From a virus (Duplodnaviria > Caudoviricetes), in the IMG/VR virus record IMGVR_UViG_3300044634_000910, positions 1 to 64,000 of that record: a stretch of DNA of 64,000 nucleotides. The stretch is one strand, 5' to 3'. The position numbers were made by a program, and so were the translations under genes. The stretch's first letter is position 1. Every line of letters starts with the position of its first letter. Positions 2,004 to 30,065 of this stretch are shown here, one piece after another. The notes below the pieces were generated by a model. That model saw only the letters and a program-made list of their open reading frames with translations. It made no database searches and was not told where the DNA came from.

Positions 2004-2030
2004 ATTCCTGAGCATGAATACAAACTGCTC
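2004..2030 (+). ncRNA. Small H-type pseudoknot motif, copy 1
   Basis: ATTC-CT-GAGCA-T-GAAT-ACAAAC-TGCTC; S1 ATTC/GAAT, S2 GAGCA/TGCTC. Confidence 0.75.
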
Positions 2031-2065
2031 AACCCAACCCCCTAACAGTAAAGGAACAGACCCAC

Positions 2066-2488
2066 ATGGCAAGAGGAAAAGCAATCTCAGTAAAAATCGC
2101 AACACCTAAAATCATCAAAGCACTTGAGGCTAAGTTAGTAGAACTTAACACTAACTATGCTAATCAAGAAGCAAACGAAGCAAAATACACAAAGTCAAGA
2201 GAAAAGTGGCAGAAGGAACTTACTGCCTATGCCGTTTCTAACATCAAGAAGGCAGAGAACTTTCGTACCAACTATCGTTCTTGGAACAACACTCTCAACA
2301 TTGACTTTGACCTAACAGTTTCACCAACAGACCTCCCAACAGAGCCTGAGCGTGACTTTGAGCAAATGGGTTCTCATACATACAAGGAAATGAAGCAAGA
2401 AATTGAGAACGCAATTCGTATCCTCAAGATGACAGATGAGGAAACAGTTTCCACATCAACTTATCAAGCGGTATCTCGTTATCTCTAA
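2066..2488 (+). CDS. Hypothetical protein
   Basis: 140-aa ORF with AAGGAA RBS. Confidence 0.8.
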   Translation: MARGKAISVKIATPKIIKALEAKLVELNTNYANQEANEAKYTKSREKWQKELTAYAVSNIKKAENFRTNYRSWNNTLNIDFDLTVSPTDLPTEPERDFEQMGSHTYKEMKQEIENAIRILKMTDEETVSTSTYQAVSRYL

Positions 2489-2497
2489 TTAGATAAA

Positions 2498-2524
2498 CGA
2501 CCTGAGTATGTCGCTAAACTGCTC
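2498..2524 (+). ncRNA. Small H-type pseudoknot motif, copy 2
   Basis: CGAC-CT-GAGTA-T-GTCG-CTAAAC-TGCTC. Confidence 0.75.
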
Positions 2525-2526
2525 AC

Positions 2527-2600
2527 GCCTCTCCCCCTGGTTCAATCCAAGATCATGGATCTAATCCATAAATTTGGCTAAAGTCCCCTGGGGGAGTGGC
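2527..2600 (+). ncRNA. Candidate tRNA-sized multi-hairpin RNA
   Basis: Closing stem GCC.CTCCCC/GGGGAG.GGC encloses TGG-TTCAAT-CCA and ATGGA-TCTAA-TCCAT hairpins. Confidence 0.4.
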
Positions 2601-2662
2601 ACCTAATTTGTCAGCGGTACCCAGTATAATTAAATTAACCAACAAACAGAAAGAGGGCCCCC

Positions 2663-3079
2663 ATGGACCAACCAGTAATAGACAATCACTACATGACACG
2701 AGAGTTTTTAGAAACTACTCTTGTTCAAAACAAAGCACGGATTGATGAATTAGAAAAGCACATTCAAACAGTAACTCAGCGCTCATACGGCGAGGCTGCA
2801 GAGCGCAACCGTATGCGTAACGAAATGCAAGAGTGGACCTTAGAAGCAATGGAGCACGGTACCATTGATGAAAGCACTGCAGAAGAGATTGCAAGCATTT
2901 GCGGCTTTGAGTTAACAAAAGAATTTGAATTAGAAGTTACAGTTCAATATTCAATTACAGTCAATGCACGTGATGAAGAGAGTGCACAGAATGCAATTCA
3001 CGATATCGATTTTGATTCTGTATCATATGGTGAAGAGGTAACTTATTTGTCATCCAGCGTTGACAGAATAGATATTTAG
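2663..3079 (+). CDS. Hypothetical protein
   Basis: 138-aa ORF behind a TATAAT promoter and GAGG RBS. Confidence 0.8.
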   Translation: MDQPVIDNHYMTREFLETTLVQNKARIDELEKHIQTVTQRSYGEAAERNRMRNEMQEWTLEAMEHGTIDESTAEEIASICGFELTKEFELEVTVQYSITVNARDEESAQNAIHDIDFDSVSYGEEVTYLSSSVDRIDI

Positions 3080-3094
3080 TAGGGGGCTACTAAT

Positions 3095-3121
3095 AAACCT
3101 GAGCATGTTTTTAAACTGCTC
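3095..3121 (+). ncRNA. Small H-type pseudoknot motif, copy 3
   Basis: AAAC-CT-GAGCA-T-GTTT-TTAAAC-TGCTC. Confidence 0.75.
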
Positions 3122-3157
3122 ACCCACTTCCCTCAAAAATTTCCTAGGGGGCAAAAG

Positions 3158-3177
3158 TTATCCACAGGTTATCCACA
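3158..3177 (+). promoter_or_regulatory. Two tandem DnaA-type boxes
   Basis: TTATCCACA at 3158-3166 and 3169-3177. Confidence 0.65.
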
Positions 3178-3309
3178 TGACCAACATCACATGTGTTTAC
3201 GATCACATTAAAAAAATGTCCGATTTGCCCTTGTTTAACTATCCCGATTTGCATTTGTCAGCCCGTCCTGTTATACTTAAATAATCAACAACAAAAAAGG
3301 AGAAAACTC

Positions 3310-4326
3310 ATGGCACATGAAATCGAAACACAAAATGGTAAGGCTTCATTCGCATCATTTCGTGAACCCGCTTGGCATGGATTGGGTACCGTATTTACAG
3401 AAGAAAAAACAACAAGCGAAATGCTTGCTGCTGCCAATCTAAATAATTGGAATGTTCGTCTGGAAGATTTGGAAACCCCTACACATCTTACAAGCGACAA
3501 GGCGTACCAGTATGTCTTGCGTACTAACCCTACTGATAACTCTCAGACCGACATTCTTGGTGTCGTTGGTGAGCGTTACCATGTAATGCAGAATGAAGAT
3601 TTATTTTCATTCGGTGATAACATTCTCGACGGTGGAGGTCGTTGGGAAACCGCTGGCTCAATCAAGGGTGGTCGTGTAGTATTTGGCGCACTTGCATTAG
3701 AGCGTGAGACAGTTCTTGACCCTAACGGTGTTGCAGATAAGGTAAAGACTTATTTACTTATCAACACATCACATGACGGCTCAATCGCTATTCAAGCAAG
3801 CATTACACCTGTTCGTGTTGTGTGCGCTAATACTCTTAACCTTGCACTAAACACAACTAAGAAAAAGAATGGTGTCAAGCAATCTTTCAAGATTCGCCAC
3901 ACTCAGACCGCTTCTGGTAAGGTTGCCGTTGCTCGTGAGACTCTTGGCATGGCTCATAAGTACATGGATTCTTTTGACCTCATGGCTAAGGCTATGATTG
4001 AAACAGAAATCAATGCTAAGCAATTTAACGACATCATTCTTGCTGCATACCCTAAGCCTGAAAAAGATTCTAAGGGTGCTTTCAAGAAATGGGAAAACAA
4101 GGTTGATGTTATCAATGACATCTACACAGGCGAGTTTAACGGCATGATTGCTGGTAATGCTTGGGGTGCTTTCAATGCACTAACTGAACGCCTTGATTGG
4201 TACCGTTCTGCTCGTGGTGGTTCTAACGAATCTATCCTTGCATCTGCATCTGGTTTTGACCCTGCTATCAATGCAGAAAAAAATCGTTTGCTAAAAATTG
4301 TGCAAAGCACTTTGCAAATTGCATAA
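3310..4326 (+). CDS. DUF932 / TIGR03299-like phage-plasmid protein
   Basis: MAHEIE...REPAWHGLG, TSHDGS and TPVRVVCANTL motifs; AGGAG RBS places the start at 3310. Confidence 0.9.
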   Translation: MAHEIETQNGKASFASFREPAWHGLGTVFTEEKTTSEMLAAANLNNWNVRLEDLETPTHLTSDKAYQYVLRTNPTDNSQTDILGVVGERYHVMQNEDLFSFGDNILDGGGRWETAGSIKGGRVVFGALALERETVLDPNGVADKVKTYLLINTSHDGSIAIQASITPVRVVCANTLNLALNTTKKKNGVKQSFKIRHTQTASGKVAVARETLGMAHKYMDSFDLMAKAMIETEINAKQFNDIILAAYPKPEKDSKGAFKKWENKVDVINDIYTGEFNGMIAGNAWGAFNALTERLDWYRSARGGSNESILASASGFDPAINAEKNRLLKIVQSTLQIA

Positions 4327-4333
4327 CTAAAAA

Positions 4334-4361
4334 AATTCCTGAGTAAGAATTAAAACTGCTC
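4334..4361 (+). ncRNA. Small H-type pseudoknot motif, copy 4
   Basis: AATTC-CT-GAGTA-A-GAATT-AAAAC-TGCTC; ends 4 nt before tRNA-Asp. Confidence 0.75.
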
Positions 4362-4365
4362 ACAC

Positions 4366-4439
4366 GGTCCGTTAGAATAGTTGGTTAGTTCGCCACCCTG
4401 TCACGGTGGAGGTCACGGGTTCAAGTCCCGTACGGATCG
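4366..4439 (+). tRNA. tRNA-Asp(GTC)
   Basis: Acceptor GGTCCGT/ACGGATC, anticodon arm CCACC-CTGTCAC-GGTGG, T loop GTTCAAGTC. Confidence 0.95.
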
Positions 4440-4581
4440 CAAAATCGCCTAGGTGATCTAGGTGTCCGATATGTCCGAATTGGCATTTTTAATAATATCT
4501 ATTAAGATGATCAAATAATATTTCCCAGATTTTCCGATTACGATAGTTGACATTTGTTCCCCAAACCCCTATAATTAGTAT

Positions 4582-4746
4582 ATGACCCAAACAAAACCTT
4601 ACACAATAGATGAACTAATGCAAAAAATATATGATGAGAACTTTTCTCATTTTGATTTCATGGATAACATGAATGGTGGAGAGTGTGATTGCAATCTCCA
4701 TGTGGCTATGGATTTAATGTATGAATATGGTGGTGGACTATGTTAG
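4582..4746 (+). CDS. Small hypothetical protein, leaderless
   Basis: TTGACA...TATAAT-N6-ATG; 54 aa. Confidence 0.6.
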   Translation: MTQTKPYTIDELMQKIYDENFSHFDFMDNMNGGECDCNLHVAMDLMYEYGGGLC

Positions 4747-4898
4747 GCTATGAGAGAGATGATTTAGATAACATGGTTCTTGCTATTGATTCTGCTTTAA
4801 CTACCGTGAATCCTGACGATGACCCCTGGTTACACAGAAACCTAACACAAGCCTCAGACTTCTTGTCAGGGCTATGGGCAGAAGGGTACTTTGACTAA
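4740..4898 (+). CDS. Small hypothetical protein
   Basis: MLGYERDDLDNM...EGYFD, overlapping both neighbours. Confidence 0.6.
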   Translation: MLGYERDDLDNMVLAIDSALTTVNPDDDPWLHRNLTQASDFLSGLWAEGYFD

Positions 4899-5113
4899 TG
4901 TGGACTAAGTATGATTATCTATGTACTGATTGTGATGCTCTTATAGAGATTACTGCTTGTGCTGAGAAGGTTCTTGATCCCGCCTGCATTTGCGGGGGAT
5001 TAGGAATAGTTATCCTATTATCACAGGGAGATGGAGCAGGACCTCTCCTGGAGCCTGTGACGAAGGTCACACCCCCTAAACTTGTAAAAATCAACACGAA
5101 CCCGTATAATTAA
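4898..5113 (+). CDS. Small Cys-containing (zinc-ribbon-like) protein
   Basis: YDYLCTDCD...CICG; TAATG coupling. Confidence 0.6.
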   Translation: MWTKYDYLCTDCDALIEITACAEKVLDPACICGGLGIVILLSQGDGAGPLLEPVTKVTPPKLVKINTNPYN

Positions 5114-5117
5114 TACT

Positions 5118-5330
5118 ATGGACCTAAAAACATTCGAAGAATATGTAAGACTACACCTGCTGTCCTTGGAGCAAGACTCTGAGGAACTACAGAAGCAAAT
5201 GGGCTTCTATGATGACTATGATTGCGATGAGTATAAGGATTTGGAGATAGAAGATATTTCTACCAATGGACAGATTCTTGCCTGCTACCACTTCTTATCA
5301 GTATTAGAGGCTACAATAGATGAGCGATAA
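5118..5330 (+). CDS. Hypothetical protein, leaderless
   Basis: TTGTAA-17-TATAAT directly upstream. Confidence 0.7.
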   Translation: MDLKTFEEYVRLHLLSLEQDSEELQKQMGFYDDYDCDEYKDLEIEDISTNGQILACYHFLSVLEATIDER

Positions 5331-5580
5331 TACTACCCTTGACCCATATCTACGCAAGCAAGTTGATTTAGGTATGGACGGGGCAGACATAATGCACGGC
5401 CACCTAAAGACTATGATGTATGAGGCTGAAAAGCAATTGGCTGAGTATGCTGACAACGATGATGAACAGTATGACCAAACAGTTAATCGTTTACACCTTG
5501 AAGGATATCTTGAAGGTTTGTCAGAACTATATAGTTTGACATATGCTATTGCTTTTGCCAAAGGAGAAGTTAATGGATAA
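5320..5580 (+). CDS. Hypothetical protein
   Basis: 86-aa ORF with GAGG RBS, overlapping neighbours. Confidence 0.7.
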   Translation: MSDNTTLDPYLRKQVDLGMDGADIMHGHLKTMMYEAEKQLAEYADNDDEQYDQTVNRLHLEGYLEGLSELYSLTYAIAFAKGEVNG

Positions 5581-5959
5581 CTTCATTGAGATGACAATGG
5601 ATGAGTGGGAAGCCACTTACAAACCTATCTATAATCATATAGACAAAAATGCTTCCTTTCAGGATGAATCAGGTAATGGCATTATGTTTGAGACCTACGG
5701 CGATGAGGTAGAGTTTGTTAAGTCTCAATCCCCTGCCAATATCTGGATGTATGGTTCTGGCGATGACGGTGGCACCTACATCTGGAATGGCTGGGGATTT
5801 GTAAATAGATTAGGATACTTTATCACTGAAGTACCCTGCCCGACTGGTCTGACCATTCAGGTACAGGTAGGAGAGCCTGACTTGACATGCGACTACTGCG
5901 GTGATATACTTGATGAAGAACTAACCCACGACCCACTATGCGAAGGAATACAAGAATGA
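5573..5959 (+). CDS. Hypothetical phage protein
   Basis: AGGAG RBS before ATG 5573; FETYG and GWGFVNRLGYFITE motifs. Confidence 0.75.
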   Translation: MDNFIEMTMDEWEATYKPIYNHIDKNASFQDESGNGIMFETYGDEVEFVKSQSPANIWMYGSGDDGGTYIWNGWGFVNRLGYFITEVPCPTGLTIQVQVGEPDLTCDYCGDILDEELTHDPLCEGIQE

Positions 5960-6333
5960 CAGAAACAGACAACCTAACACTTATCGGACAATTTTTTGTA
6001 GATAGCGGTCAAGCAATGATTGGCGACCCGTGCTATTTAGATGAATGGAAGCATTGGGATAGCGGTTCAGATATCCCATTTGAGGAGCACAAAAATCGTA
6101 ATGGCGAGTATGGTTACCTTGGTGCCGCTAATGCTACTCTAAGCAAAAATGGCTATGGAGTCTTAGGCACTGAAGTTATTGAAGGTACTGGAATAACAGG
6201 AACCAATGCTGGTTCGGCAGTTGTTTTTTCTACAGGGTATGGAGACGGAGTCTATCCTGTATACGCAGACATTGACGAAGATGGTCGTGTTGCTCGTATT
6301 GTTATTGAATTTATTACAGATGAGGATAACTAA
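5956..6333 (+). CDS. DUF4241-like protein
   Basis: VDSGQAMIGDPCY and STGYGDGVYPVY motifs. Confidence 0.65.
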   Translation: MTETDNLTLIGQFFVDSGQAMIGDPCYLDEWKHWDSGSDIPFEEHKNRNGEYGYLGAANATLSKNGYGVLGTEVIEGTGITGTNAGSAVVFSTGYGDGVYPVYADIDEDGRVARIVIEFITDEDN

Positions 6334-6478
6334 TGTCAGAATTTAAAGTAGAGATTATCTTTGAGCCAACAGGCGACTACATGACATTTAGATACGATGC
6401 TGAATCAGATAATGAAGCAGACCTTATCAATGAAATACTAAACCAACTATCAATCGTATCTTTTAAGGAGCAAGACTA

Positions 6479-6841
6479 ATGGGAGCCCGTATCAACTTTG
6501 TATTTAAAGACGTTGAGGATGAAGCACACGTAGTCCTATATAGCCACTGGGGTGAGACTGAATGGCAGCGGGACTTGGCAATGGCACTGGAGCACTCTAA
6601 GCCACGCTGGAAAGACTATGCTTACTTCACCCGCATGATGATTAGTTATTTTATTCAAGACTCCGTGCTTGAAGAAACAGGGTTTGGAATTTATTCTATC
6701 AAGGGTACCAACTTTGAATTAGGCGAGACCACTATCGTTATCGATATCGCTAAAGAAACCGTCTATGAGGCAGGCAAGGACCTGCAGGTCGACTGGCAGT
6801 TATTTATTAATGCCTATATACCAAAAACCGTTAGCGCTTAG
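6479..6841 (+). CDS. Hypothetical phage protein
   Basis: MGARINF...LYSHWG; AAGGAG RBS. Confidence 0.75.
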   Translation: MGARINFVFKDVEDEAHVVLYSHWGETEWQRDLAMALEHSKPRWKDYAYFTRMMISYFIQDSVLEETGFGIYSIKGTNFELGETTIVIDIAKETVYEAGKDLQVDWQLFINAYIPKTVSA

Positions 6842-6963
6842 CGCAGCATATGATCAGTGCGGATGGGTCCCTCACTGATTAACTAAATAAGGATAGGGAC
6901 GGCGTAGCCTGTAGGGGTTGCGCCTCCCTTCCCCTTCCTGTATAATAGATAAAGAGGAGAGAC

Positions 6964-7206
6964 ATGGCGTACAGCGTTCGTAGGAAACCCGAAAGCACTA
7001 AAGAAATACAGTACTCTAATCGCATGGCTAAGTTATTAACTGAGGACATGGGACTTAACTTGGAAGCACTCGGCTTTCATTTAGTACATAACCACCCTGT
7101 CATTGTATCTCGCAGACTCGAAGTCGTTGCATTGACAGCGGGGGAAGAGTATGATAAAATGATGTCAGGGTACTTAGGAAAGGATTACACAGAACTATGG
7201 AAGTAA
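6964..7206 (+). CDS. Hypothetical protein
   Basis: TATAAT and GAGGAG upstream. Confidence 0.75.
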   Translation: MAYSVRRKPESTKEIQYSNRMAKLLTEDMGLNLEALGFHLVHNHPVIVSRRLEVVALTAGEEYDKMMSGYLGKDYTELWK

Positions 7207-7493
7207 ACTTTACAGATAGATGTGGCATTTTAGGACAGTTTTGGTATGAGTTCAGAGATGATGAGGATCTAAAGCCTTTCATCTCATACAACGATGTTGG
7301 CTTGCCACTTGCTTGGTTTATTGCAACGGGAGTAGTAACACCACTACCAATGGCTGAGGAGTATGTCAACGAAACATTCGCTATGTTCCTTGATGCAATG
7401 GAAGTAACAGAGGACGATGTCCTTGATGTTGATAATCTTGATGACCTGTTAGCAGTAGTTGAGTTAAAGAAAAGCGAAAGAGAAGCGGAGTAG
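7197..7493 (+). CDS. Hypothetical acidic protein
   Basis: 98-aa ORF, last gene of the early block. Confidence 0.7.
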   Translation: MEVNFTDRCGILGQFWYEFRDDEDLKPFISYNDVGLPLAWFIATGVVTPLPMAEEYVNETFAMFLDAMEVTEDDVLDVDNLDDLLAVVELKKSEREAE

Positions 7494-7501
7494 CCAAGGC
7501 T

Positions 7502-7517
7502 GCACCCTTCGGGGTGC
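7502..7517 (+). terminator. UUCG hairpin closing the early block
   Basis: GCACCC-TTCG-GGGTGC just after the stop at 7493; no U-tract. Confidence 0.6.
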
Positions 7518-7698
7518 GCCCTAGGTGATCTAGAAAATATACCACACATATCAAACCTTGTCAAATCAAATAGGGGTATTACGAACCTTATCAAAAATTT
7601 CCCAGAATCTTATTACGATGGTTTGAAAAAAATTCCCAGAAGTTTACCATATCAAACCTTATTTGTCAAACCTTTATATCCAGGTGTATAATAAAGAT

Positions 7699-7929
7699 AT
7701 GTCCCCACACCACTTTGCAGCAATGTATAGAAACCCATCACATAGACATGATGCAGATCATGACTCTATAGGGTTTGATAAAGCCATTGGTGCATTAACT
7801 GGTATGTTGTATTCTATTGTTACTCTTAAGGCTTTCTTTCCTTCATCCCCCGCCCCAGAAATGAATCATAATCCTGTTAAGGATGCCGCAGGCGGGGATT
7901 CAAAGTACACACAACTCACTCTATTCTAA
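7699..7929 (+). CDS. Hypothetical protein, leaderless
   Basis: TATAAT-N6-ATG at 7699. Confidence 0.5.
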   Translation: MSPHHFAAMYRNPSHRHDADHDSIGFDKAIGALTGMLYSIVTLKAFFPSSPAPEMNHNPVKDAAGGDSKYTQLTLF

Positions 7930-8304
7930 TAACAAACCTCTATAAAGGTATTACGAACGACTCTAAATTTTTCCCTGAGTTTTCAAACCTTTATAGAATT
8001 TTTTTTGATTTTATAAAAAGATTATGATCGTTTCGTAAAAAATCGCTGACTTTTTAAGGGCATATTCATGCATAAAAGGACTTGACAAACCATGGTTTTG
8101 CATGTATAATGCCCAAACCTTATATACTGGTTTGACAAATATGGACATATGTGGTATACAAGGTTTGGCGATACAAAGGTTTGGGGATATGAGGTTTGGA
8201 AAGGCCGCATTACGAACGCCCTCTATAAAAACGCACCAGTCACCACTATCCTCCACTTCACTCCACTTTAACCCTATCTAATAATCTAATCAGTAACATT
8301 TATC

Positions 8305-8358
8305 TGTGGATAACATGTGGATAACTATGACATTTTTAGCCTATTGACATGTGGATAA
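8305..8358 (-). promoter_or_regulatory. Three DnaA-type boxes
   Basis: TGTGGATAA at 8305, 8316 and 8350. Confidence 0.65.
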
Positions 8359-8485
8359 CTATCTGATATCATAGATATATGAAACCTTTTCTAATCATAA
8401 TGTTAGGCCTATTCTTATTTCTTAACTACATGGCTTATCTTCAACAAATCCGTATGGGTGGATAAAAAACCACGGTATATAAAGA

Positions 8486-8806
8486 TTACGAACACTCCTT
8501 TATAGCCCTATTGACCATACGGATCAACGCCCTACGGGTTATCTTTGAAGCATCAAAGGTCTCTGTGTATCCATTTTGAGGCATATCCGCCTTATCCAGG
8601 AAATGTCCATGTCTTTCCCTTAGTGTTTTTAGTACTATAGATTCGACCTTTCTTGCCTTATCCCGTTCGAAAAAATGCCAATACTTGATCAATATCCAGC
8701 CCTTGGTCCTATGGCTTGCAAACCTTCTACCTGATATGTCTGATATACCTATCTTGACAGCCTTATGTAGTGGGCTGTATAGTATATATAAGACTGTTGA
8801 TTCCAT
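8486..8806 (-). CDS. GIY-YIG/T5orf172-like nuclease-domain protein
   Basis: LYILY...VKIGIS...RRFASH...ARKVES...GYTETF; leaderless start after TATAAT. Confidence 0.65.
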   Translation of the reverse strand: MESTVLYILYSPLHKAVKIGISDISGRRFASHRTKGWILIKYWHFFERDKARKVESIVLKTLRERHGHFLDKADMPQNGYTETFDASKITRRALIRMVNRAIKECS

Positions 8807-8870
8807 GGGTTTATTATACTTGACATACCGTGGCAAATATGGGATACTTAAAATATGAAAGAAGATAATA

Positions 8871-9212
8871 ATGCCTAACAAGAAAAATAAAAAGATAGAC
8901 TGGTCAAATCCAGATAGAAAGATAGATTGGACAAACGCTATAGCCAAGGCTGAGCGTCAATTGGGTAGGAATAAGGCTGCTATTGAGTCATCTGTCATGG
9001 GTACCCCATCAAACTGGTCAAGACCTAACTATAACAAACCTATGGTTGCTCCAGATCAATCCCCTCCAGATGAGAAGGTTAAGAAACCTAAGAAACTAAG
9101 TAAAAAACAACGCAGAGCACACAATAAGGTCTTTGTCCCTCAACAAAAGCAAAAGGCTAAGAGGTCTACGGAAAACCAGGGTTTGCCAATAGTGAAGAAA
9201 GTTAACCAGTAG
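8871..9212 (+). CDS. Basic hypothetical protein
   Basis: 113-aa Lys-rich ORF downstream of a TTGACA promoter. Confidence 0.55.
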   Translation: MPNKKNKKIDWSNPDRKIDWTNAIAKAERQLGRNKAAIESSVMGTPSNWSRPNYNKPMVAPDQSPPDEKVKKPKKLSKKQRRAHNKVFVPQQKQKAKRSTENQGLPIVKKVNQ

Positions 9213-9262
9213 TGCCCGTTTAGGGCATAGGATGGTTTATAACTTCTATTTTGCGCCGAACT

Positions 9263-9595: not shown

Positions 9596-9778
9596 ATAGT
9601 GACTACCTTCCTAAACAATATTAACTTATTGTATCATATGATATAATCTATATATGAATAAAACTAAGTGTTTCTTTTGTAAAGAGGATGCAACACATTA
9701 TGATATCGTGGTAGATCACGCTGATTATATTGTTGCAGATGTTTGCTTAGTTCATCTGTCTATGGGCCTTGTATCTTA

Positions 9779-10018: not shown

Positions 10019-10045
10019 ACCCTTACTTTAAGGTATACTGAATAC

Positions 10046-11337: not shown

Positions 11338-11360
11338 CAAAGTTATGGTATTATGTATAC

Positions 11361-12044: not shown

Positions 12045-12076
12045 TCTTAAAATAAAAAAGGTGCTATAATAACAAT

Positions 12077-17946: not shown

Positions 17947-17977
17947 GAGCAGTTTATAGACGACTGCTCAGGTCTAT
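17947..17977 (-). ncRNA. Small H-type pseudoknot motif, copy 5
   Basis: ATAGAC-CT-GAGCAG-TC-GTCTAT-AAA-CTGCTC on the - strand. Confidence 0.75.
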
Positions 17978-21460: not shown

Positions 21461-21461
21461 T

Positions 21462-21746: not shown

Positions 21747-21747
21747 G

Positions 21748-21957: not shown

Positions 21958-21970
21958 CTTTATTCCTTTG

Positions 21971-22715: not shown

Positions 22716-22736
22716 AGTGTCTCCAAAACAATTATA

Positions 22737-23075
22737 CTACTTATCTAAAAGAATAACTCTGATTATCTCTTTCAATGTAGCCTGAGACTCTTTACTTAGT
22801 TTAGAAACCGCTTCCTGATCCAGCGCTTTAGGAGTCAATGTAACTATTGGATTTTTTTCAGTAACATCCATATCTAAAAATCCATGGCTCCACAAAGACA
22901 TAGTCTCACGAGAAAAATATAGAGATACTTCCCTATGTAGTTCTGGGCTTATATCTATCAACTTTTCTGTAAAATTGTATATAGGCTCACCAGTATCCAT
23001 ATCTATTCCAGAAACTTCAAGGGCACCAGCCAAGATTAATTGGTCTATTGCATCATCTTCATCTTTAAAGTTCAT
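22737..23075 (-). CDS. Hypothetical protein
   Basis: LILAGALEVSGID..TGE..Y; paralogous to the next ORF. Confidence 0.7.
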   Translation of the reverse strand: MNFKDEDDAIDQLILAGALEVSGIDMDTGEPIYNFTEKLIDISPELHREVSLYFSRETMSLWSHGFLDMDVTEKNPIVTLTPKALDQEAVSKLSKESQATLKEIIRVILLDK

Positions 23076-23296
23076 TGACGAATTCTCCATGTCATTCTTG
23101 TAGGACCCTGCTCAATTAGTTGAAACATGTGGTGCTCATACTGATCTTTTAGTTCTTCGTATATATCTGGACTGACTTCTTTCATCTTATCAGTAATTGT
23201 ATACATCATCTCACCAGTTGCTTCATCTATACCCTGAAATTCAACAGCACCCTGAAGCATTAAGTGTTCAAGCATGGCTTGTTCTTTAAGCCCCAT
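23072..23296 (-). CDS. Hypothetical protein
   Basis: LMLQGAVEFQGID..TGE..Y. Confidence 0.7.
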   Translation of the reverse strand: MGLKEQAMLEHLMLQGAVEFQGIDEATGEMMYTITDKMKEVSPDIYEELKDQYEHHMFQLIEQGPTRMTWRIRQ

Positions 23297-23297
23297 A

Positions 23298-23705
23298 TTA
23301 CTTACCTGACTTTGCTCTTGCCTTCTTCAAAGCGTCAAAATCTTTGACCTTTGTCTCTCCCATATAGCCCCAGGCATGGCCATCATTGATCATCTTGTCA
23401 TTAATTGAGACGGTATCTCCATCAAGGTAGACCCAACCAAGGATGCGACCATACTTTTCTGATGAGTCCATCTTCTCTGTCTTGATCACTACAGACTTAG
23501 CACTGTCAATAGCAGCCTTCAAATAAGCCTTTGCTTCCAGTCCTAAAGCCTTTTCAGCCTTGTCTGTAGTACGAGACTCAGGTGTATCAATACCAGCCAG
23601 TCTTACCCTTGAACTAAAAGAAATATCAAACCCTAAATCAATATCGACATCAATGGTATCTCCATCAACGACTTTTGTTACTTTCTTTACATAATATTCA
23701 AACAT
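23298..23705 (-). CDS. Thermonuclease (SNase-like)
   Basis: VVDGDTID, VRLAGIDTPE and KYGRILG motifs. Confidence 0.9.
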   Translation of the reverse strand: MFEYYVKKVTKVVDGDTIDVDIDLGFDISFSSRVRLAGIDTPESRTTDKAEKALGLEAKAYLKAAIDSAKSVVIKTEKMDSSEKYGRILGWVYLDGDTVSINDKMINDGHAWGYMGETKVKDFDALKKARAKSGK

Positions 23706-23715
23706 TTGTGCCCCC

Positions 23716-24000
23716 TTAGACCCAATACTTAATTATAGCAGTTGCTGCAAGAATTGACCAGATTATATTAAACCAAATAATTGTTGGTAATGTTTTTACT
23801 GTTGATGACCAAATTAAAGATAAACTGGTTATTAATGCAAAGATGTATAGCCACCAAAACTGTACACCAAAAATAAGACCTGGAATAATAATTGCTGCCT
23901 TGGTCATAAAGGCAAAGAACTCTACCGTATTTGGTAGGTTCCAATAAGACTTATGCTTCATTGTCTTTAGAGCATTAATCCACTCTGTTCTAAATTTCAT
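23716..24000 (-). CDS. Small membrane protein
   Basis: Three hydrophobic segments. Confidence 0.7.
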   Translation of the reverse strand: MKFRTEWINALKTMKHKSYWNLPNTVEFFAFMTKAAIIIPGLIFGVQFWWLYIFALITSLSLIWSSTVKTLPTIIWFNIIWSILAATAIIKYWV

Positions 24001-25520
24001 TTTAGTCCCTCCAAAAATTGCCTATGATTTGTACATTCTGAAACTTTGTACTGTCTGTACTTGCTGTGATATTCATAGTTTTCTACTGCTTTTTTATACT
24101 CATCAGAAAGTTCTACATATTCTTTTGCAAGATTTTTATTAATTTTTTCTTGTGCTGAACCAATCAAAAACCAACTCTTAGAGTGCCAATGGTTTCCGTT
24201 ATCTCGTGAACTTGGCATTCTTTTTTGCCAAGCGTCTAACTTTTTCTTTATTTTTTCTGGTGCATTTTCATATGAAAATTTGTTCCAGAATTTTGTATCT
24301 TTGCGTAGGGCCATGTAATGAAAATATATAAGGTCTAGAACATCATCATTCATATTTACAATAATCTTATTAAACTCTGCTCTTATTTCAGGAGAATTAT
24401 TGGTTAGAAAGTCTGGACTACCAAATATCTCAGTCAATTCAACCATACTTACCCACAAAGAAGTCGCCTCAAGTGGCTCTACAAAGTTTGCTGCCAAGCC
24501 AACTGCTACACAGTTGTTTTGCCATGGCTCCTCAAATGCTCCTGGGCTAAATTTAAAACCACCCTTATCTTTTCTTGGATAGTGAGGAACAAAGCCTAAG
24601 AAATCTTCAATCTCTTTAATTGCTTCTTCTTCTGATATCAGAGACGAGTCATAGACATAGCCACAACCAAACCTTGTCTGTAGAGGAATCTTCCACATCC
24701 ATCCATATTTCATTGCAATTGCTTCTGTATATGGTGGAATTTCTTCTGTCATATCCAAGAAAAATGGAATTGCAGAATCTGTTGGCAAAAATTCTTTATA
24801 ACTTTTCCATTTAGAGTTAAAGGTTTTTCCAATAATTAGCCTATGAAATCCACTACAATCAAACACAAAGTCGCACAGAATATTTGATCCACCATCTAAG
24901 TCCAAACTGATTACATTATTGTCTTTATCTAAATGAACATTAGTTATTGTGTCCTCAAATACTTCAATACCTCTTTCAAGACCTATCTCTTTAAATCTTG
25001 CTGCAAGTTTTGTAGCATTAAAATGAAAAGATGTATAGCCTATCTTTTTATAATCTGAAAGAGTATTCCCATCTTTATTTTTTTCAAGAACAAAAGGAAC
25101 TTTATTTTTTTCTGAAACTATTTCTGTAAAGTCTATATCCCTTACATTATTATTTAATACAATGCTTGAGACCATCATTGGGCTTGCAGACAAGAACCGA
25201 GAAGAAAGTGCCTCTGTTCCAAGAGCATTGTCCGTAAATGCAAAACCATGATAATAAAAGTCATTTTCGTTATTCCAATTTGTAAATTTAATTCCATTTT
25301 TTATTGTTGCATCACAATTTTTTACTAAGTCTTCAAAAGTTATATCTAAGGTTTCTAAAAATGCAGGTAAGTATGGTGTGGAGCCTTCTCCTGCACCCAA
25401 GATACCAATATCTTTTGACTCTATTACAATAACATTTAGTTTTGGATACTTCTTTTTTGCGGTCAACGCCGTAAGCCATCCAGCACTTCCTCCACCAACA
25501 ACAACTATATTCTTTGTCAT
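23997..25520 (-). CDS. Tryptophan-halogenase-family flavoprotein
   Basis: GGGSAGW, GAGEGS, ATIKNGIKF, DCSGF, WMWKIP and FVEPLEATS motifs. Confidence 0.9.
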   Translation of the reverse strand: MTKNIVVVGGGSAGWLTALTAKKKYPKLNVIVIESKDIGILGAGEGSTPYLPAFLETLDITFEDLVKNCDATIKNGIKFTNWNNENDFYYHGFAFTDNALGTEALSSRFLSASPMMVSSIVLNNNVRDIDFTEIVSEKNKVPFVLEKNKDGNTLSDYKKIGYTSFHFNATKLAARFKEIGLERGIEVFEDTITNVHLDKDNNVISLDLDGGSNILCDFVFDCSGFHRLIIGKTFNSKWKSYKEFLPTDSAIPFFLDMTEEIPPYTEAIAMKYGWMWKIPLQTRFGCGYVYDSSLISEEEAIKEIEDFLGFVPHYPRKDKGGFKFSPGAFEEPWQNNCVAVGLAANFVEPLEATSLWVSMVELTEIFGSPDFLTNNSPEIRAEFNKIIVNMNDDVLDLIYFHYMALRKDTKFWNKFSYENAPEKIKKKLDAWQKRMPSSRDNGNHWHSKSWFLIGSAQEKINKNLAKEYVELSDEYKKAVENYEYHSKYRQYKVSECTNHRQFLEGLK

Positions 25521-25723
25521 TACTTTCTTCCCCATTGTATATAGTTCCATCCACGCTCATGTGCGTAGTAGATAAATACTTTAACTACCGTTTCCCAAAA
25601 TGCAATCGTCACAGAGAGAGAAGCGTTTTTTGTAATGACATAGGCAACAGCAACAGAGGAAAGCGTTCCCCATATGCGATAACTAAGTGCCTTAACAAAT
25701 GACCTTGCCTTGGTTACTGTCAT
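25520..25723 (-). CDS. DUF2061 membrane protein
   Basis: RSFVKALSYR...YYAHERGW. Confidence 0.85.
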   Translation of the reverse strand: MTVTKARSFVKALSYRIWGTLSSVAVAYVITKNASLSVTIAFWETVVKVFIYYAHERGWNYIQWGRK

Positions 25724-25923
25724 TCCTTGCCCCACCTAACAGCATTCCAAATTCTTTCATGATAATAGTATGCCACAAAGTTAACCCCATTGGTTATTAG
25801 TGTAGCAATAGTAGCCAGACTAATATCTTCGCTCAAAGCATAAAGAGTCACAAACCCTGAAACCATTGCGACAACTCTCCATGTTAAAGACTTAACAAGT
25901 GATCTACTTTTCTTTACGCTCAT
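25720..25923 (-). CDS. DUF2061 membrane protein
   Basis: RSLVKSLTWR...YYYHERIW. Confidence 0.85.
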   Translation of the reverse strand: MSVKKSRSLVKSLTWRVVAMVSGFVTLYALSEDISLATIATLITNGVNFVAYYYHERIWNAVRWGKE

Positions 25924-25988
25924 CTTTGTCTCCAAACATTATTCGCTCTTCTGCTTCGTTCATTAAGCGACCAGACTCTTCTAAATAA

Positions 25989-26750
25989 TTAAAGACCCAA
26001 CTGCTTGCGTTTTTCAGTAGCCGATATAGCATGAATGTCTGCCCCCAAATCCACTTGCTCAATCTTGTATCCTACATCACGACCATATACAATGTTGGTA
26101 ATGTTTGGTAGTCTTAATACCAATGCACCATCCATAAAGTCGTCCTTGGCAATATATTCCTTTACCTGATCAAACTTAAGAGGATCCTTATCGCTTGTAT
26201 TGTAGGTATTACGGACTCCAAGCAGTACTTGGTCTGTTCTCTTCCCTGCCTCTTTATAAAGGGCGTGGTGGCCCTCGTGCCAGGGCTGGTACCTACCCAG
26301 CATAAGTGTTGTAGGTGCAGACCAATCATGAAGACTAAACTTATCGATGATGTGAGATGCCTTTGCTTCTGCATCTAAGTTGTGACTAATAAAAGATACA
26401 TCTGCATTGGTTGGTCGTTCAAACATTTTGTTTGTGTCTTCGAATCTACCCTCAGCAATAGTGTCCATGAATACTAAAATGTCTGGCTTGCCAAATGCTG
26501 CACGAGTTAGATCTGTTGGGCATACAAAGTCAACAATTACTGAAGCAACGCCTTGCTTAGCAATAAGCCTTGCCATCTCTCCCATACGACGAGCCTGCTC
26601 AAGTCTGTCCTCTGGTGCAAACCCCAAGTCTGAGTTGACTGTTGCACGAACCTCATCTGCATTAAGATGAATAGCATTAATGCGTTCTTTAAGTGCCTTT
26701 GCTAATTCTGTTTTACCAGAACCTGGTAGTCCAATAATTTGAATAATCAT
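25989..26750 (-). CDS. Adenylylsulfate-kinase-like domain fused to an HxGH nucleotidyltransferase
   Basis: GLPGSGKT, NADEVR, DLGF..EDR; C-terminal GRYQPWHEGH and ISAT. Confidence 0.85.
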   Translation of the reverse strand: MIIQIIGLPGSGKTELAKALKERINAIHLNADEVRATVNSDLGFAPEDRLEQARRMGEMARLIAKQGVASVIVDFVCPTDLTRAAFGKPDILVFMDTIAEGRFEDTNKMFERPTNADVSFISHNLDAEAKASHIIDKFSLHDWSAPTTLMLGRYQPWHEGHHALYKEAGKRTDQVLLGVRNTYNTSDKDPLKFDQVKEYIAKDDFMDGALVLRLPNITNIVYGRDVGYKIEQVDLGADIHAISATEKRKQLGL

Positions 26751-27310
26751 TTTTTCCCTATTTCTATGTTTGGCATAATATCAATCAATAAATGCACTCT
26801 ATCTATTTTACTACCATTCTTTACAAAATGAGTTCTTGAGTTATTGATTTCCCAGCATTCCCCAGTACCCATCTTAACTTGTTCATCACCTACGCCAAAA
26901 AATACATCATCAGAAGTCACAATTGGTATGTGATTTCTTTTTGAAAGCATAAGATAATCTCCTGAGTCATGGTGTGGTGCTATGTCCTGACCTGCCTTTA
27001 ACTTAATCAAAAGTACCATACCTCTAACTCCGTCTTGTGTTTTTTCAAGGTCTGACACTATTGGCTCAAGCAGTTCAAGCAAATTCTTGTCGTTGGATGT
27101 AGTCTCAGTGGCAAACTCACTACCCTCTTTCCAACGAAGGTCTGCAGTATAAACAAAATATGAGTTTGTATCTTTATGAACATAGTGCTTATCTTGCCTT
27201 GATGTGTTAAGAAACCATTCTTTAGAAAAACTATCTATGTAATTTTTGATTGGCTCAACATCATATTTTCCATGATGCTTAAAATTAAAGTCTTCCAATG
27301 TTTTTCTCAT
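26747..27310 (-). CDS. Aspartyl/asparaginyl beta-hydroxylase-like 2OG oxygenase
   Basis: PHHD, RNHIPIVT, WEINN..TH.V.N and RVHLLID motifs. Confidence 0.85.
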   Translation of the reverse strand: MRKTLEDFNFKHHGKYDVEPIKNYIDSFSKEWFLNTSRQDKHYVHKDTNSYFVYTADLRWKEGSEFATETTSNDKNLLELLEPIVSDLEKTQDGVRGMVLLIKLKAGQDIAPHHDSGDYLMLSKRNHIPIVTSDDVFFGVGDEQVKMGTGECWEINNSRTHFVKNGSKIDRVHLLIDIMPNIEIGKK

Positions 27311-27891
27311 TTTTTCTCCAGGGTTTTACTAAAATCTTTAGAATATTCAAAGTTTATGAAATCAGAACTGTATAGTTCCTGAGTCATATCTATTGCTTTT
27401 TCTGTGTAGTCTTCCATATATGATTCTACCACATAGTTTCCTAAATTATAAAACCCAAGTGTCCACCCAAGTTCATTCTCTAACTCTTTTAAGTTTTCAA
27501 ACCTATATAATCTATTAACCTGTAGGCTGCCATTATCAATAATATAAAATGATTGTGGAAGATGCAATAGTGGGCTTATCGGAGATATATTGTTTTGCCT
27601 AATATTGTCTAAATATTTTACAAAAGATATATCTGTCTTGTTAACCTTATTAAATTGCTTATAACAACTATAAGTCCTTGTGTATGGATTTCTTACAACA
27701 GAAAAAGAAAAAACACTCTCATCAATTTTGTTTGCTTCCTTTAGATAGGAATAAGGGTCATGGTGTCTTGGCCATGCCCTATTCCAGTTATCTAAATTAT
27801 TATCGTTCAGCACCTTAGAGATGGACGAGCCAGCAGTCTTTGGGATGTGAACAAACAAAACGTGAGAATATTGCTTTTCTTTTATAAGCAT
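27307..27891 (-). CDS. Sulfotransferase family protein
   Basis: FVHIPKTAGSSI, VRNPYTR..S.Y, H..PQ and RFENL motifs. Confidence 0.85.
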   Translation of the reverse strand: MLIKEKQYSHVLFVHIPKTAGSSISKVLNDNNLDNWNRAWPRHHDPYSYLKEANKIDESVFSFSVVRNPYTRTYSCYKQFNKVNKTDISFVKYLDNIRQNNISPISPLLHLPQSFYIIDNGSLQVNRLYRFENLKELENELGWTLGFYNLGNYVVESYMEDYTEKAIDMTQELYSSDFINFEYSKDFSKTLEKK

Positions 27892-27897
27892 ACTAGT

Positions 27898-28125
27898 TTA
27901 ACTAACTAGTTTTTGTCGCTCATCAAGTACCGTCAAAGCAAAGGACATCATCTTCTTGTACCCATCTTTGTTGTTCATGATGTTGTTGTAATGGTGACCA
28001 CAAAATAGCAGGTATCCGCTAATACCAGAGACCTTTACCAAAGCCTCAGCGTTGCACCTATCGCATCGATCTGCTGGAGATAGTTGCCACTCTTGCCTTA
28101 CTTCATCTTTAACCATTGTAAACAT
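27898..28125 (-). CDS. Small actinobacterial-type zinc-binding protein
   Basis: DRCDRC.A.A...LLFCGHH. Confidence 0.7.
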   Translation of the reverse strand: MFTMVKDEVRQEWQLSPADRCDRCNAEALVKVSGISGYLLFCGHHYNNIMNNKDGYKKMMSFALTVLDERQKLVS

Positions 28126-28129
28126 TATA

Positions 28130-28315
28130 CTACCGCTTTCTGTTATCAGTGGAATAAAATCCACTACCGTTGAATACTGCTCCTATATTAGAGTATACAC
28201 GAACCAGAGGCAGATTGCAAGTTTCGCAATCGTACCCTGGATCGTCTTCTTTAATTGATCTTTCTTTTGTATACCTTTGACCGCAAGGCATACAATCGTA
28301 TTCGTATAATGCCAT
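28130..28315 (-). CDS. FmdB-family zinc-ribbon protein
   Basis: YEYDC..C...C..C...FNGSGFYSTD. Confidence 0.85.
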   Translation of the reverse strand: MALYEYDCMPCGQRYTKERSIKEDDPGYDCETCNLPLVRVYSNIGAVFNGSGFYSTDNRKR

Positions 28316-28426
28316 TATGTTATTTCTTTTTCTTTTCTTTTATATACCAAACAGGCAGTTTTAGTTCATCTCCAGACCATTCATAGCCTAAAGCCTTTAC
28401 AACAAACTTAATAATTTTAATACGCA

Positions 28427-28645
28427 TTATTTTACCTTGTGTCCAAACTTTGCCCAGACTCTCTCATGTAGGTAATAGAATGTCATTTCTAATGCCATGT
28501 ATGAAAGTGCATATAGTCCAACATACTCCCATTCAGCCTCACCATAAATTATATGGCTTGCTGCAAATAAAATTCCAGCAACAAAAGTAAAATGTACAAA
28601 TGGCCAACTGATTGTTTTTAGTAGTGATTTCTTTTTAGATTCCAT
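28427..28645 (-). CDS. DUF2061 membrane protein
   Basis: ESKKKSLLKTISW...YYLHERVW. Confidence 0.8.
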   Translation of the reverse strand: MESKKKSLLKTISWPFVHFTFVAGILFAASHIIYGEAEWEYVGLYALSYMALEMTFYYLHERVWAKFGHKVK

Positions 28646-29292
28646 TATAGAGCCACTGGACCCTTTCCTCCGCCACCAGATGACTTCTTTGCAGTAGGCT
28701 TAATTTCCTTTGGTTCTGCCTTCTTAACTGGTGCTGCAGAGGTTGCAGATGTAACAATCTTATTTAATAGTGGAGCATTCTCTTCACCAGTGTAAACTGG
28801 ACGGCCCCAACCAACAACAGCGTTAACCAACTTCTTCTTGTTGTTCTTTACATATGCACGAGTCTTCTCTACGCACATTCCGCCGTTGCGCTGATCTCCC
28901 TTTGCAGTTCCTGAAGTGTTTCCTTCAATAACTTGAATAGTTCCATCACCATTATTCTTAATGCAAAGACCAACATGTGAAATGCGATTTACACCATCTT
29001 CTGGGAAATCAAAATAGATCCAGTCTCCTGGAGTTGGATCATCATTACGAGCATCTGACCAACGCTCAGCCTTCTTAAACCAGTCTGCTGCTGCTACTGT
29101 TGATGCAGACTTAGGGAATGACTTTACCCCCGCAGTAAATGCTGACCAAGAAACAAACGATTGGCACCATGGTTGGAAGTTTACCTTAATCCATGCACCG
29201 TACTTTGTTTCGTTATCCTTTGGGCCTTCAATTGTGCCCACTTCTTTCTTTGCAACCTCAATGATTGCTTCTACTGATCCTTTTGCTGCCAT
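28645..29292 (-). CDS. CHAP-domain amidase (putative endolysin)
   Basis: QPWCQSFVSW, SHVG, IEGNT and GWGRP motifs. Confidence 0.85.
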   Translation of the reverse strand: MAAKGSVEAIIEVAKKEVGTIEGPKDNETKYGAWIKVNFQPWCQSFVSWSAFTAGVKSFPKSASTVAAADWFKKAERWSDARNDDPTPGDWIYFDFPEDGVNRISHVGLCIKNNGDGTIQVIEGNTSGTAKGDQRNGGMCVEKTRAYVKNNKKKLVNAVVGWGRPVYTGEENAPLLNKIVTSATSAAPVKKAEPKEIKPTAKKSSGGGGKGPVAL

Positions 29293-29348
29293 TTTATTCC
29301 TCCTTGTAGGTATGACAATATAATTATATCATGACAGGGTATGCCCAT

Positions 29349-29936
29349 TTATAGGGATTGCCATCTCAAATATTTTCTGTATCCTTCTAAATCTACTACA
29401 TTTGGATCTACCCACCAATCCTCATGGTACTCTCTAACAACCAGTGAGTAGCCAAGTGAATCTAAAATCTCTCGTTGGGCATCTCTTATTGCAACATTTC
29501 TCCAATACATATTTGCATCATGCTCAAATGAAATAACTGTAAATCTATACTTATTTAATGGGACAGCAATAAGTCCGTGCAAAGATTGATGGGCATTCCC
29601 ATCAGGTCTTCCATTGAGTTTGTATCCAGAGTCAATGTCTACCTGCAAATAATCAATCTGCTTTGGAAATCTATTTTCTTCAAAGTATCTCACATAATCA
29701 AATTTTGTTGCATCGCCAAGAATACATGGGTTCTTTCTATTTTCTGAAACTTCTTTATGCAATTCTGGAACAATTTCAAAAGACACACCCTTCCAGTCAA
29801 ACTCTGTTTCTAGTCTATATGTGTTACTTCCTTTTACAGAATGATATGCTCCAAGTTCTACATAGTACCCGCCAGTTTTTTTGTCTAATAAGTCTATTAC
29901 AAATTCTTCTTGTCTGCTTGTTGGTGCAACCTGCAT
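29349..29936 (-). CDS. FkbM-like methyltransferase
   Basis: YVELGA...SNTY.LE..W.G, IDYLQVDID, FEHD and EDWWV motifs. Confidence 0.75.
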   Translation of the reverse strand: MQVAPTSRQEEFVIDLLDKKTGGYYVELGAYHSVKGSNTYRLETEFDWKGVSFEIVPELHKEVSENRKNPCILGDATKFDYVRYFEENRFPKQIDYLQVDIDSGYKLNGRPDGNAHQSLHGLIAVPLNKYRFTVISFEHDANMYWRNVAIRDAQREILDSLGYSLVVREYHEDWWVDPNVVDLEGYRKYLRWQSL

Positions 29937-29961
29937 TGTTATCCCTTTCATTGGTTTTGCG

Positions 29962-30034
29962 CTGCCCCACCTGGCCTCGATCCAGGGACATCCGAATTAA
30001 CAGTTCGGCACTCTACCAACTGAGTTATAGGGCA
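29962..30034 (-). tRNA. tRNA-Asn(GTT)
   Basis: Acceptor TGCCCTA/TGGGGCA; CCGAA-CTGTTAA-TTCGG; atypical T loop ATCGAGG. Confidence 0.9.
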
Positions 30035-30037
30035 TTG

Positions 30038-30065
30038 AGGCAGTTTTAAGTCATACCAAGGACTT
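30038..30065 (-). ncRNA. Small H-type pseudoknot motif, copy 6 (variant S2)
   Basis: AAGTC-CTT-GGTA-T-GACTT-AAAAC-TGCC-T; lies between the peptidase stop and tRNA-Asn. Confidence 0.65.

Follow-up and report, generated by a model that had tools for sequence, protein, structure and literature searches.

The small structured RNA most similar to the element described here is coremin (xrRNA-C), an exoribonuclease-resistant RNA (xrRNA) present in beny-, cucumo- and other eukaryotic RNA viruses (Dilweg et al. 2019, PMC6546385; 2023, PMC10520033; 2023, PMC10321173). According to these reports, the first coremin hairpin consists of 3-5 bp with a C-G closing pair, and a G-C pair at this place abolishes function (PMC6546385). 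The loop of this hairpin, YGAD or YGNNAD, is 4-8 nt long, with a pyrimidine at the first position, G at the second, A at the penultimate and any base other than C at the last (PMC6546385, PMC10520033). In the spacer GUU-AAACUAC, residues A16-A20 are essential and UU is tolerant, and a second hairpin (>=4 bp) immediately downstream is obligatory for Xrn1 resistance (PMC6546385). A Watson-Crick variant, xrRNA-WCC, is also described, in which three loop bases pair with the spacer. In this study we analysed a small pseudoknot, hereafter the knot, that occurs in six copies in the DNA of a phage of the Caudoviricetes (IMG/VR record IMGVR_UViG_3300044634_000910). The window, meaning the whole stretch of DNA analysed, is the first 64 kb of this 80,434-base record.

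Other described systems share single features with the knot. Compact triplex-stabilised H-type pseudoknots include the luteoviral and retroviral frameshifters, the gene 32 leader of phages T2/T4 and the preQ1-I riboswitch. The knot resembles them in topology, size, a short first loop (L1), an A-rich third loop (L3) fit for the minor groove of the first stem (S1) and near-coaxial stems. It differs from them in having neither a slippery site nor an open extension frame, and in occurring in several copies behind stop codons, not ahead of one regulated gene. Its second loop (L2) is variable and tolerates hairpin inserts, which speaks against a ligand pocket, and the Rfam preQ1 model gave no match over 1950-4450. 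Known hairpins that stabilise 3' ends are the T7 RNase III sites and the REP elements. Like such stabilisers and intrinsic terminators, the knot is found just behind stop codons at the ends of units, and a subset of copies (18-24%) has a U-tract; unlike them, it is not a G+C-rich hairpin, its sequence is kept across unrelated phages and most copies are without a U-tract. The knot was not assigned to the intrinsic (Rho-independent) terminators, since no window copy has a U-tract. Hammerhead ribozymes are likewise small structured RNAs found in several copies between phage genes, and in phage and prophage operons they have been proposed to split long transcripts into gene-length units (Perreault et al. 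2011, PMC3088659). In contrast to the knot, hammerheads are self-cutting and have a defined catalytic core; this core is missing from the knot, whose CUGAGYA differs from the hammerhead CUGANGA at the catalytic G.

The knot is a unit of 27-31 nt in which S1, L1, S2, L2, S1', L3 and S2' follow in this order. In the window, S1 has 4-6 bp of free sequence closed by C-G, L1 is CU and S2 is GAGYA; L2 is a single base (three in copy 5), S1' comes next, and L3 consists of 0-2 free bases followed by AAAC. S2' is UGCUC, usually with A as the next base. The original prediction, made from the letters alone, had listed six copies, and their positions and parts were recovered unchanged by re-reading of the sequence, by pattern and by covariance model. 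A strict sequence pattern matched five times in the window against 0.06 matches expected from shuffles. The covariance model, built from relatives and other phages, picked out exactly these six copies in the window (E 3e-9 to 2.7e-5; the hit ranking next has E = 1), and its count for all 80,434 bases of the record was likewise six. The sequence of S1 is different in each of the six copies and pairs in 6/6. In copy 6, GGUA/UGCC replaces GAGYA/UGCUC with one double change and 4/5 pairs, the covariation that had been pointed out. The predicted joint of 1-2 nt between S2 and S1' describes all copies but copy 5, in which L2 has 3 nt and S1 6 bp; variants of the copy 5 type are present in other viral contigs too. 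A seventh, degenerate copy at 28350-28380 on the minus strand was rejected, as it lies inside coding sequence and has an E value of 5.3. Describing the signal as genome-wide was an overstatement, since 80 kb contain six copies and 2.4 kb of the early region account for four of these.

Comparison with other phages revealed that the knot is a real, covarying H-type pseudoknot RNA of the sense strand. Relatives were searched with the pattern CCTGAGYA-N4-10-AAACTGCTC, which matched at least 120 stretches of viral contigs and 119 stretches of bacterial or archaeal assemblies. Among the viral matches listed, which were chosen by sequence alone, 144 of 146 copies have at least three contiguous S1 pairs (S1 length 3-7 contiguous pairs) and 119 have at least four. 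For S2, candidates were picked by S1 pairing, CU and AAAC only, and S2 pairing was not required. Among the 18 candidates with a non-consensus S2, 16 show 5/5 pairs, one (window copy 6) shows 4/5 and one, probably a chance hit, shows 3/5; the reversed-sequence control gave three candidates in total. The S2 variants found were GGGUA/UACCC, GGACA/UGUCC, AAGCA/UGCUU, AGACA/UGUCU, AGGCA/UGCCU and GGGCG/CGCCC.

An alignment of 150 rows, pre-filtered for three or more pairs in S1, for pairing of S2 and for a spacing of 7 nt, the commonest one, was used for description and not as a test; it contains 145 of 164 such copies and five window copies. Paired cells amount to 97.9% in this alignment versus 79.8% in shuffles, and 0 of 500 shuffles reach its values. 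Both-side changes occur in eight of the nine pairs, and no slid register is comparable. U-G appears at one S2 pair in 37 of the 150 copies; because U-G would be an A-C mismatch on the opposite strand, the structure belongs to the sense-strand RNA. The loop-closing pair of S1 is C-G in 148/150 copies and the first pair of S2 is G-C in 141/150, and the base after S2', A in 98 of 137 copies, could add a U-A pair to S2. The structural claim first made from six copies is thus borne out far more strongly by some 220 copies of other phages. Two viral contigs carry hairpin insertions in L2 (L077:6626-6672, plus strand; L085:3082-3143, minus strand) with CU and AAAC kept; the inserted hairpin, located between S2 and S1', makes the junction three-way.

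Analysis of the bacterial and archaeal assemblies gave a different picture from that of the viral contigs. Only 54 of 122 copies in this set have at least three S1 pairs, and the remaining 68 were rejected as chance matches from a much larger collection. Contigs with well-formed copies are labelled Saccharibacteria, Aminicenantes, Lachnospiraceae, Eggerthellaceae, Alistipes, Calothrix, Polynucleobacter, Lacticaseibacillus, Clostridium and others, and the host labels of contigs in metagenome-assembled genomes (MAGs) cannot be relied on where phage DNA is concerned. In Lacticaseibacillus (L. suibinensis 247-3) the copy belongs to a prophage and is flanked by the gene for a minor head protein and the scaffold gene. 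A host genome-wide repeat was rejected, as three isolate genomes contained only 1, 1 and 2 copies, none beyond those already found. Streptomyces phage EGole, picked for its phrog_1221-like gene, has zero copies. A canonical copy with a U-tract was found on a contig of a MAG labelled Methanobrevibacter (L240); this contig could come from an archaeal virus or be phage DNA that was binned wrongly. Clustering of 4,505 open reading frames (ORFs) from 168 loci with a bona fide copy found no protein family common to the whole set, and a phage-encoded partner protein was rejected on this ground. Recurrent families were confined to one lake-phage clade; these are phrog_1221-like proteins (22 loci, in 16 of which the knot follows the gene), proteins of 140 aa and 181 aa (18 loci each) and WhiB-like and Hsp20-like proteins.

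The knot was found in none of the catalogues searched. Rfam 15 at gathering score returned five tRNAs only over the window. At E <=10 over 1950-4450 no copy was overlapped except by a chance CRISPR-DR66 hit on the opposite strand (E 2.8; 20 bits versus a gathering score of 45). Membership in an Rfam family, including DUF805, preQ1 and the ribozymes, was therefore rejected, and the suggested link to DUF805/DUF805b falls with it. A literature search found no paper on the phage motif; a catalogue of 10,006 viral RNA candidates (PMC10690425), which mentions the gene 32 knot, may include it.

For the genomic context, 222 copies with at least three S1 pairs and a paired S2 were collected from viral loci, genome loci and this record; a subset of 164 copies comprises the viral loci (among matches listed) and this record. 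Genes in the loci were called by simple, crude ORF rules with a cut-off of >=50 aa for same-strand ORFs, and many copies are orthologous, so that the counts are not independent events. The window copies are all on the locally coding strand (6/6), and the strand preference noted there is general: within 400 nt upstream, a same-strand gene is present in 129 and an opposite-strand gene in seven of the 164 copies. ORFs running across knots on the opposite strand were discounted, being mostly short shadow ORFs, with long ones at chance matches in bacterial loci.

Analysis of the distance between knot and preceding gene revealed anchoring at the stop codon. Five of the six window copies begin 4-15 nt after a stop codon, as had been seen, and copy 5 is 95 nt away from the nearest ORF of >=50 aa. 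In the larger set, S1 starts 4-20 nt after a stop codon in 116/205 copies, with a mode of 5-6 nt, and never 0-3 nt after it, as measured from the nearest ORF of >=50 aa on the same strand. The nine gap lengths from 4 to 12 nt are represented by 7, 17, 23, 13, 10, 8, 9, 7 and 4 copies, respectively, without 3-nt periodicity (29, 34 and 35 copies per phase). Distances to the following start codon are spread widely from about 16 nt upwards and exceed 50 nt in 121/202 copies; spare intergenic space, where present, lies behind the knot and not ahead of it.

The sequence behind the knot is also distinctive. At least five T in 8 nt are found at +1 to +10 in 18-24% of copies and in 2-5% at all other tested offsets, a 5-10 times enrichment of U-tracts directly behind the knot. 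The statement that no copy has a U-tract is thus correct for the six window copies and fails for the family. A same-strand tRNA starts 4-13 nt downstream in 16/222 copies, and a tRNA lies within 30 nt upstream in only 1/222; of the 16 downstream tRNAs, many are orthologous tRNA-Asp loci and others are tRNA-Arg and tRNA-Ser. In the window, copies 4 and 6 precede tRNAs and copy 2 precedes a tRNA-sized fold at the distances originally given (Table 1). Six to nine of the 164 copies are at convergent gene ends. In the early region (600-4800), promoter-like sites were found ahead of the genes at 1828, 2663, 3310 and 4582, no intrinsic terminator was predicted on the plus strand, and the knots stand at the usual terminator positions. 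Contigs from RNA libraries of relatives cover the early genes and continue through copies 2 and 4; this RNA evidence consists of assembled contigs, in which starts, ends and strand are unreadable and uncovered bins are uninformative.

On this basis, we tentatively favour reading the knot as a self-folding end-cap that would sit just outside the terminating ribosome and guard the 3' end of the upstream message. A ribosome with the stop codon in its A site begins to unwind mRNA at about +11 from the P site. The sharp floor of 4 nt brings the start of S1 to just this point, and the knot therefore appears to be placed so as to remain folded during translation of the upstream gene. It would occupy the 3' untranslated stretch as near to the stop codon as the terminating ribosome allows and would stay folded while this gene is translated. 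A 3' end could then be formed just downstream by termination at a U-tract, by an RNase P cut at the following tRNA or by an endonuclease cut in the A/U-rich RNA behind the knot. The knot would become the terminal structure, and 3'->5' exonucleases would be halted before they enter the coding region; both the block and the side on which it would act are inferred, whereas the fold, its covariation, its strand, its anchoring to stop codons and the sequence behind it are shown directly. Each cistron would in this way gain its own protected end. In the window, an RNase P cut at the 5' end of tRNA-Asp would leave an upstream message ending in copy 4 plus 4 nt. The position of spare space behind the knot fits an element that stays joined to the ribosome-covered coding region, with no endonuclease cut between the two, which is the behaviour expected of a 3' protector of the upstream cistron. 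This reading was chosen because U-tract enrichment, the tRNAs behind knots, the copies at convergent ends and the terminator-free early region agree. The general proposal of an RNA end-processing or protection signal fits the context statistics, and these do not narrow the list of mechanisms offered with it to one.

Several points weigh against an end-cap. The contigs of relatives that pass through copies 2 and 4 indicate transcription of the knot and speak against a tight stop there, and 75-80% of copies are without a U-tract. A plain G+C-rich hairpin would be equally able to block 3' exonucleases, and the conservation of a marginally stable pseudoknot across phyla is therefore left unexplained. 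Coremin, the closest known relative, is documented to block 5'->3' and not 3'->5' enzymes. Furthermore, 91 of the 164 copies lie between two same-strand genes, some with the next ribosome-binding site 12-15 nt downstream, and in such tight gaps a 3' end would need a cut. In the Lacticaseibacillus prophage the knot is just ahead of the scaffold gene, where protection of the downstream RNA would be biologically more sensible.

These points bear on a second reading, possible but on balance doubtful, in which the knot is the phage counterpart of an exoribonuclease-resistant RNA and would form a mechanical block to machines moving 5'->3' (RNase J, scanning RNase E, ribosomes). Decay begun in one cistron would then halt at the knot, and the downstream RNA would survive with a knotted 5' end. 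The 91/164 copies within same-strand gene runs and the prophage copy upstream of the scaffold gene are expected on this account, and the resemblance to coremin favours it. Coremin is reported to block Xrn1 and scanning ribosomes and to stimulate -1 frameshifting in vitro, and bacterial RNase J1 is stopped in vitro by a flaviviral xrRNA, such blocks being not enzyme-specific. The knot shares with coremin a short first hairpin with C-G closure (148/150 copies). It also shares a loop, C-U-G-A-G-Y-A-N, that starts with a pyrimidine and has A at the penultimate position; by eye the last loop base is mostly U or A and sometimes C in the 150 rows. Two tolerant bases followed by AAACU are a further likeness, confined to the first part of the spacer, with NN-AAAC-U in 150/150 copies; the invariance of CU and AAAC is partly due to selection by the pattern, and hits found by the model only keep both. 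Size (about 27 nt) and placement in 3' untranslated regions and between genes, sometimes around a stop codon, are similar too, and pairing between loop and spacer yields a small H-type pseudoknot as in the Watson-Crick variant.

Against these likenesses stand clear differences. At the second loop position all copies of the knot have U, and coremin requires G there; S2 consists of 5-6 Watson-Crick pairs versus 0-3 in coremin, and AAACU is followed by the loop-paired GCUC in the knot and by AC in coremin. A second hairpin (>=4 bp, starting within 4 nt of S2') was found in 56/220 copies and is not enriched over controls (56/217 at 60 nt further on, 56/218 upstream, 23% in shuffled sequence). With two defining features failing, membership in coremin by its published definition was rejected. 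The hosts of the knot are bacteria, which are free of Xrn1, and the MAG labels, unreliable as they are for phage contigs, include lineages that are not known to have RNase J. The knot may use a fold related to that of coremin, either by common descent or by convergence. The placement also fits a 5' block poorly, as the anchor is the upstream stop codon and not the downstream ribosome-binding site, a U-tract directly behind or a tRNA 4-13 nt behind is unexpected for a 5' protector and 6-9 copies have no same-strand gene downstream. We regard it as rather improbable that the knot is the first RNA class of DNA phages to resist exoribonucleases and ribosomes, a protein-independent mechanical roadblock built on the coremin core fold. 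Such a class would divide the polycistronic messages of phages into separately stable units in many bacterial phyla. The end-cap and the 5'->3' block are not exclusive; if both of its stems are stiffened, a knot could insulate cistrons from either side.

A lower probability attaches to a pseudoknot-type transcription terminator or pause signal, in which S2 would form beside RNA polymerase, the U-tract would be optional and the stop would be leaky. The enrichment of U-tracts exactly behind S2', the position of knots close behind stop codons and their presence at expected terminator sites, where none was predicted on the plus strand of 600-4800, are what such a signal would produce. The absence of a U-tract in 75-80% of copies and in all six window copies argues against it, as do the RNA-library contigs of relatives that extend past copies 2 and 4, for which carry-over of DNA is possible. 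Many copies have a ribosome-binding site and a gene 16-30 nt downstream, which leaves no room for a promoter, and tRNAs 4 nt downstream would go untranscribed.

Just as improbable is a site recognised by an RNase or other protein common to all hosts, for example a mimic of the tRNA acceptor arm. In tRNA-like acceptor pseudoknots of the tymovirus type, a pseudoknotted helix is combined with a single-stranded NCCA 3' tail. RNase P would, as an example, cut L1 behind its conserved U, immediately ahead of the first G of S2, and the knot would be a processing site like the hammerheads of phage operons. A sequence conserved across phages assigned to many phyla suggests a universal partner, the layout is RNase P-like (U before S2, G-C as first pair in 141/150, A after S2' in 98/137) and knots adjoin tRNAs. 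Hammerheads flank prophage genes (PMC3088659). ACC is found behind S2' in only 30/222 copies, many of them perhaps orthologous, and ACCA in 16/222 versus about one expected by our own estimate from base composition; this is an enrichment and no rule, and assignment to the tRNA-like acceptor pseudoknots was rejected. Both counts are far higher than base composition predicts, and the tail behind this minority of knots is tRNA-like. Against an RNase P site, the stacked helix of 9-10 bp without a T-loop makes a poor substrate. A dedicated partner also finds little room, as protein families near knots recur only within the one lake-phage clade (22/168 loci) and the resemblance to coremin, which works protein-free, explains the conserved bases without one.

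Very improbable, finally, is a recoding signal (read-through or frameshift), for which the 4-9 nt stop spacing is that of known stimulators and coremin-type knots are reported to raise -1 frameshifting in reporters, yet which was rejected for lack of frame periodicity (29, 34, 35) and of an open extension frame (UGA and often UAA lie within the knot, and for copy 1 another in-frame stop follows after 3 codons), and equally a DNA-level site such as a protein-binding site or an origin-type hairpin, against which stand the U-G pairs frequent on the sense strand only, the orientation that tracks transcription (129 versus 7) and the freely varying S1 sequence.

The features of the window are listed in Table 1. 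Genes are on the plus strand up to about 16.2 kb and on the minus strand past that point, and encode a tape-measure protein, a minor tail protein, a DnaE-type polymerase, a DnaB-like helicase and a terminase. Lake-water metagenome runs contain DNA near-identical to the window. The fold directly behind copy 2 gave no tRNA call by ARAGORN and no Rfam match, and relatives seemingly keep a similar C-rich start behind their orthologue of copy 2. It is a possible candidate for a stable RNA or a processing substrate, and it may be part of the knot unit. Between tRNA-Asp and the gene at 4582 there is a promoter that matches the sigma-70 consensus perfectly (TTGACA, 17 nt, TATAAT). The phrog_1221-like gene is the part of the window best covered by metatranscriptome contigs of relatives. 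An ORF that matches the tryptophan halogenase PHROG is an unusual phage cargo, and a very long ORF with weak tape-measure matches continues past the window end.

Table 1. Copies of the knot and other features of the window; S1, S2 and L1-L3 are stems and loops, scores of copies are from the covariance model, and MFE is the minimum free energy.
Feature	Position	Strand	Parts	Score or support	Context
Copy 1	2004..2030	+	S1 2004-2007; L1 CU 2008-2009; S2 2010-2014; L2 2015; S1' 2016-2019; L3 2020-2025 (AAAC end); S2' 2026-2030	38.3 bits, E 3.4e-8	stop codon 1990-1992, gap 11 nt; following start codon 2066
Copy 2	2498..2524	+	S1 2498-2501; CU; S2 GAGUA 2504-2508 (one U-G pair); L2 2509; S1' 2510-2513; L3 2514-2519; S2' 2520-2524	41.0 bits	stop codon 2486-2488, gap 9 nt
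74-nt stable fold	2527..2600	+	closed by long stem	MFE -31.8 kcal/mol; z -3.47; 0/200 shuffles as good	starts 2 nt past copy 2; ACC behind fold
Copy 3	3095..3121	+	S1 3095-3098; CU; S2 3101-3105; L2 3106; S1' 3107-3110; L3 3111-3116; S2' 3117-3121	42.4 bits	stop codon 3077-3079, gap 15 nt
phrog_1221-like gene	3310..4326	+
Copy 4	4334..4361	+	5-bp S1 4334-4338 with 4347-4351; S2 4341-4345; S2' 4357-4361	40.8 bits	7 nt past stop of phrog_1221-like gene
tRNA-Asp (GUC)	4366..4440	+		ARAGORN/Rfam	starts 4 nt past copy 4 end
Sigma-70 consensus promoter	4547..4575	+
Copy 5	17947..17977	-	6-bp S1 17977-17972 with 17961-17956; 3-nt L2; 4-nt L3 (AAAC)	31.5 bits	95 nt past Hsp20-like ORF
ORF, 517 aa (tryptophan halogenase)	23997..25550	-		PHROG, E 3e-103
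tRNA-Asn (GUU)	29961..30034	-			directly downstream of copy 6, gap 3 nt
Copy 6	30038..30065	-	S1 30065-30061 with 30052-30048; S2 GGUA/UGCC	27.2 bits, E 2.7e-5	4 nt past stop of ORF 30070-31032
ORF, >2,100 aa	57654..64000	-		weak tape-measure matches	past window end

The knot is thus a strongly covarying RNA of 27 nt that is widespread, absent from the RNA catalogues searched and stereotyped in its placement, close outside the terminating ribosome and ahead of tRNAs, U-tracts and promoters. It allows a direct test of minimal pseudoknots against bacterial exonucleases, both 3'->5' enzymes and RNase J. If the fold proves to be xrRNA-like, one minimal RNA fold would block processive enzymes in bacteria and eukaryotes alike. 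If it acts as a roadblock or an end-cap, bacterial viruses would be linked to the coremin-type xrRNAs of plant and fungal viruses, and the knot could serve as a tiny portable element with which bacterial mRNAs are stabilised or insulated. Phages would then tune the stability of single genes within long transcripts without a phage protein and across many host phyla.

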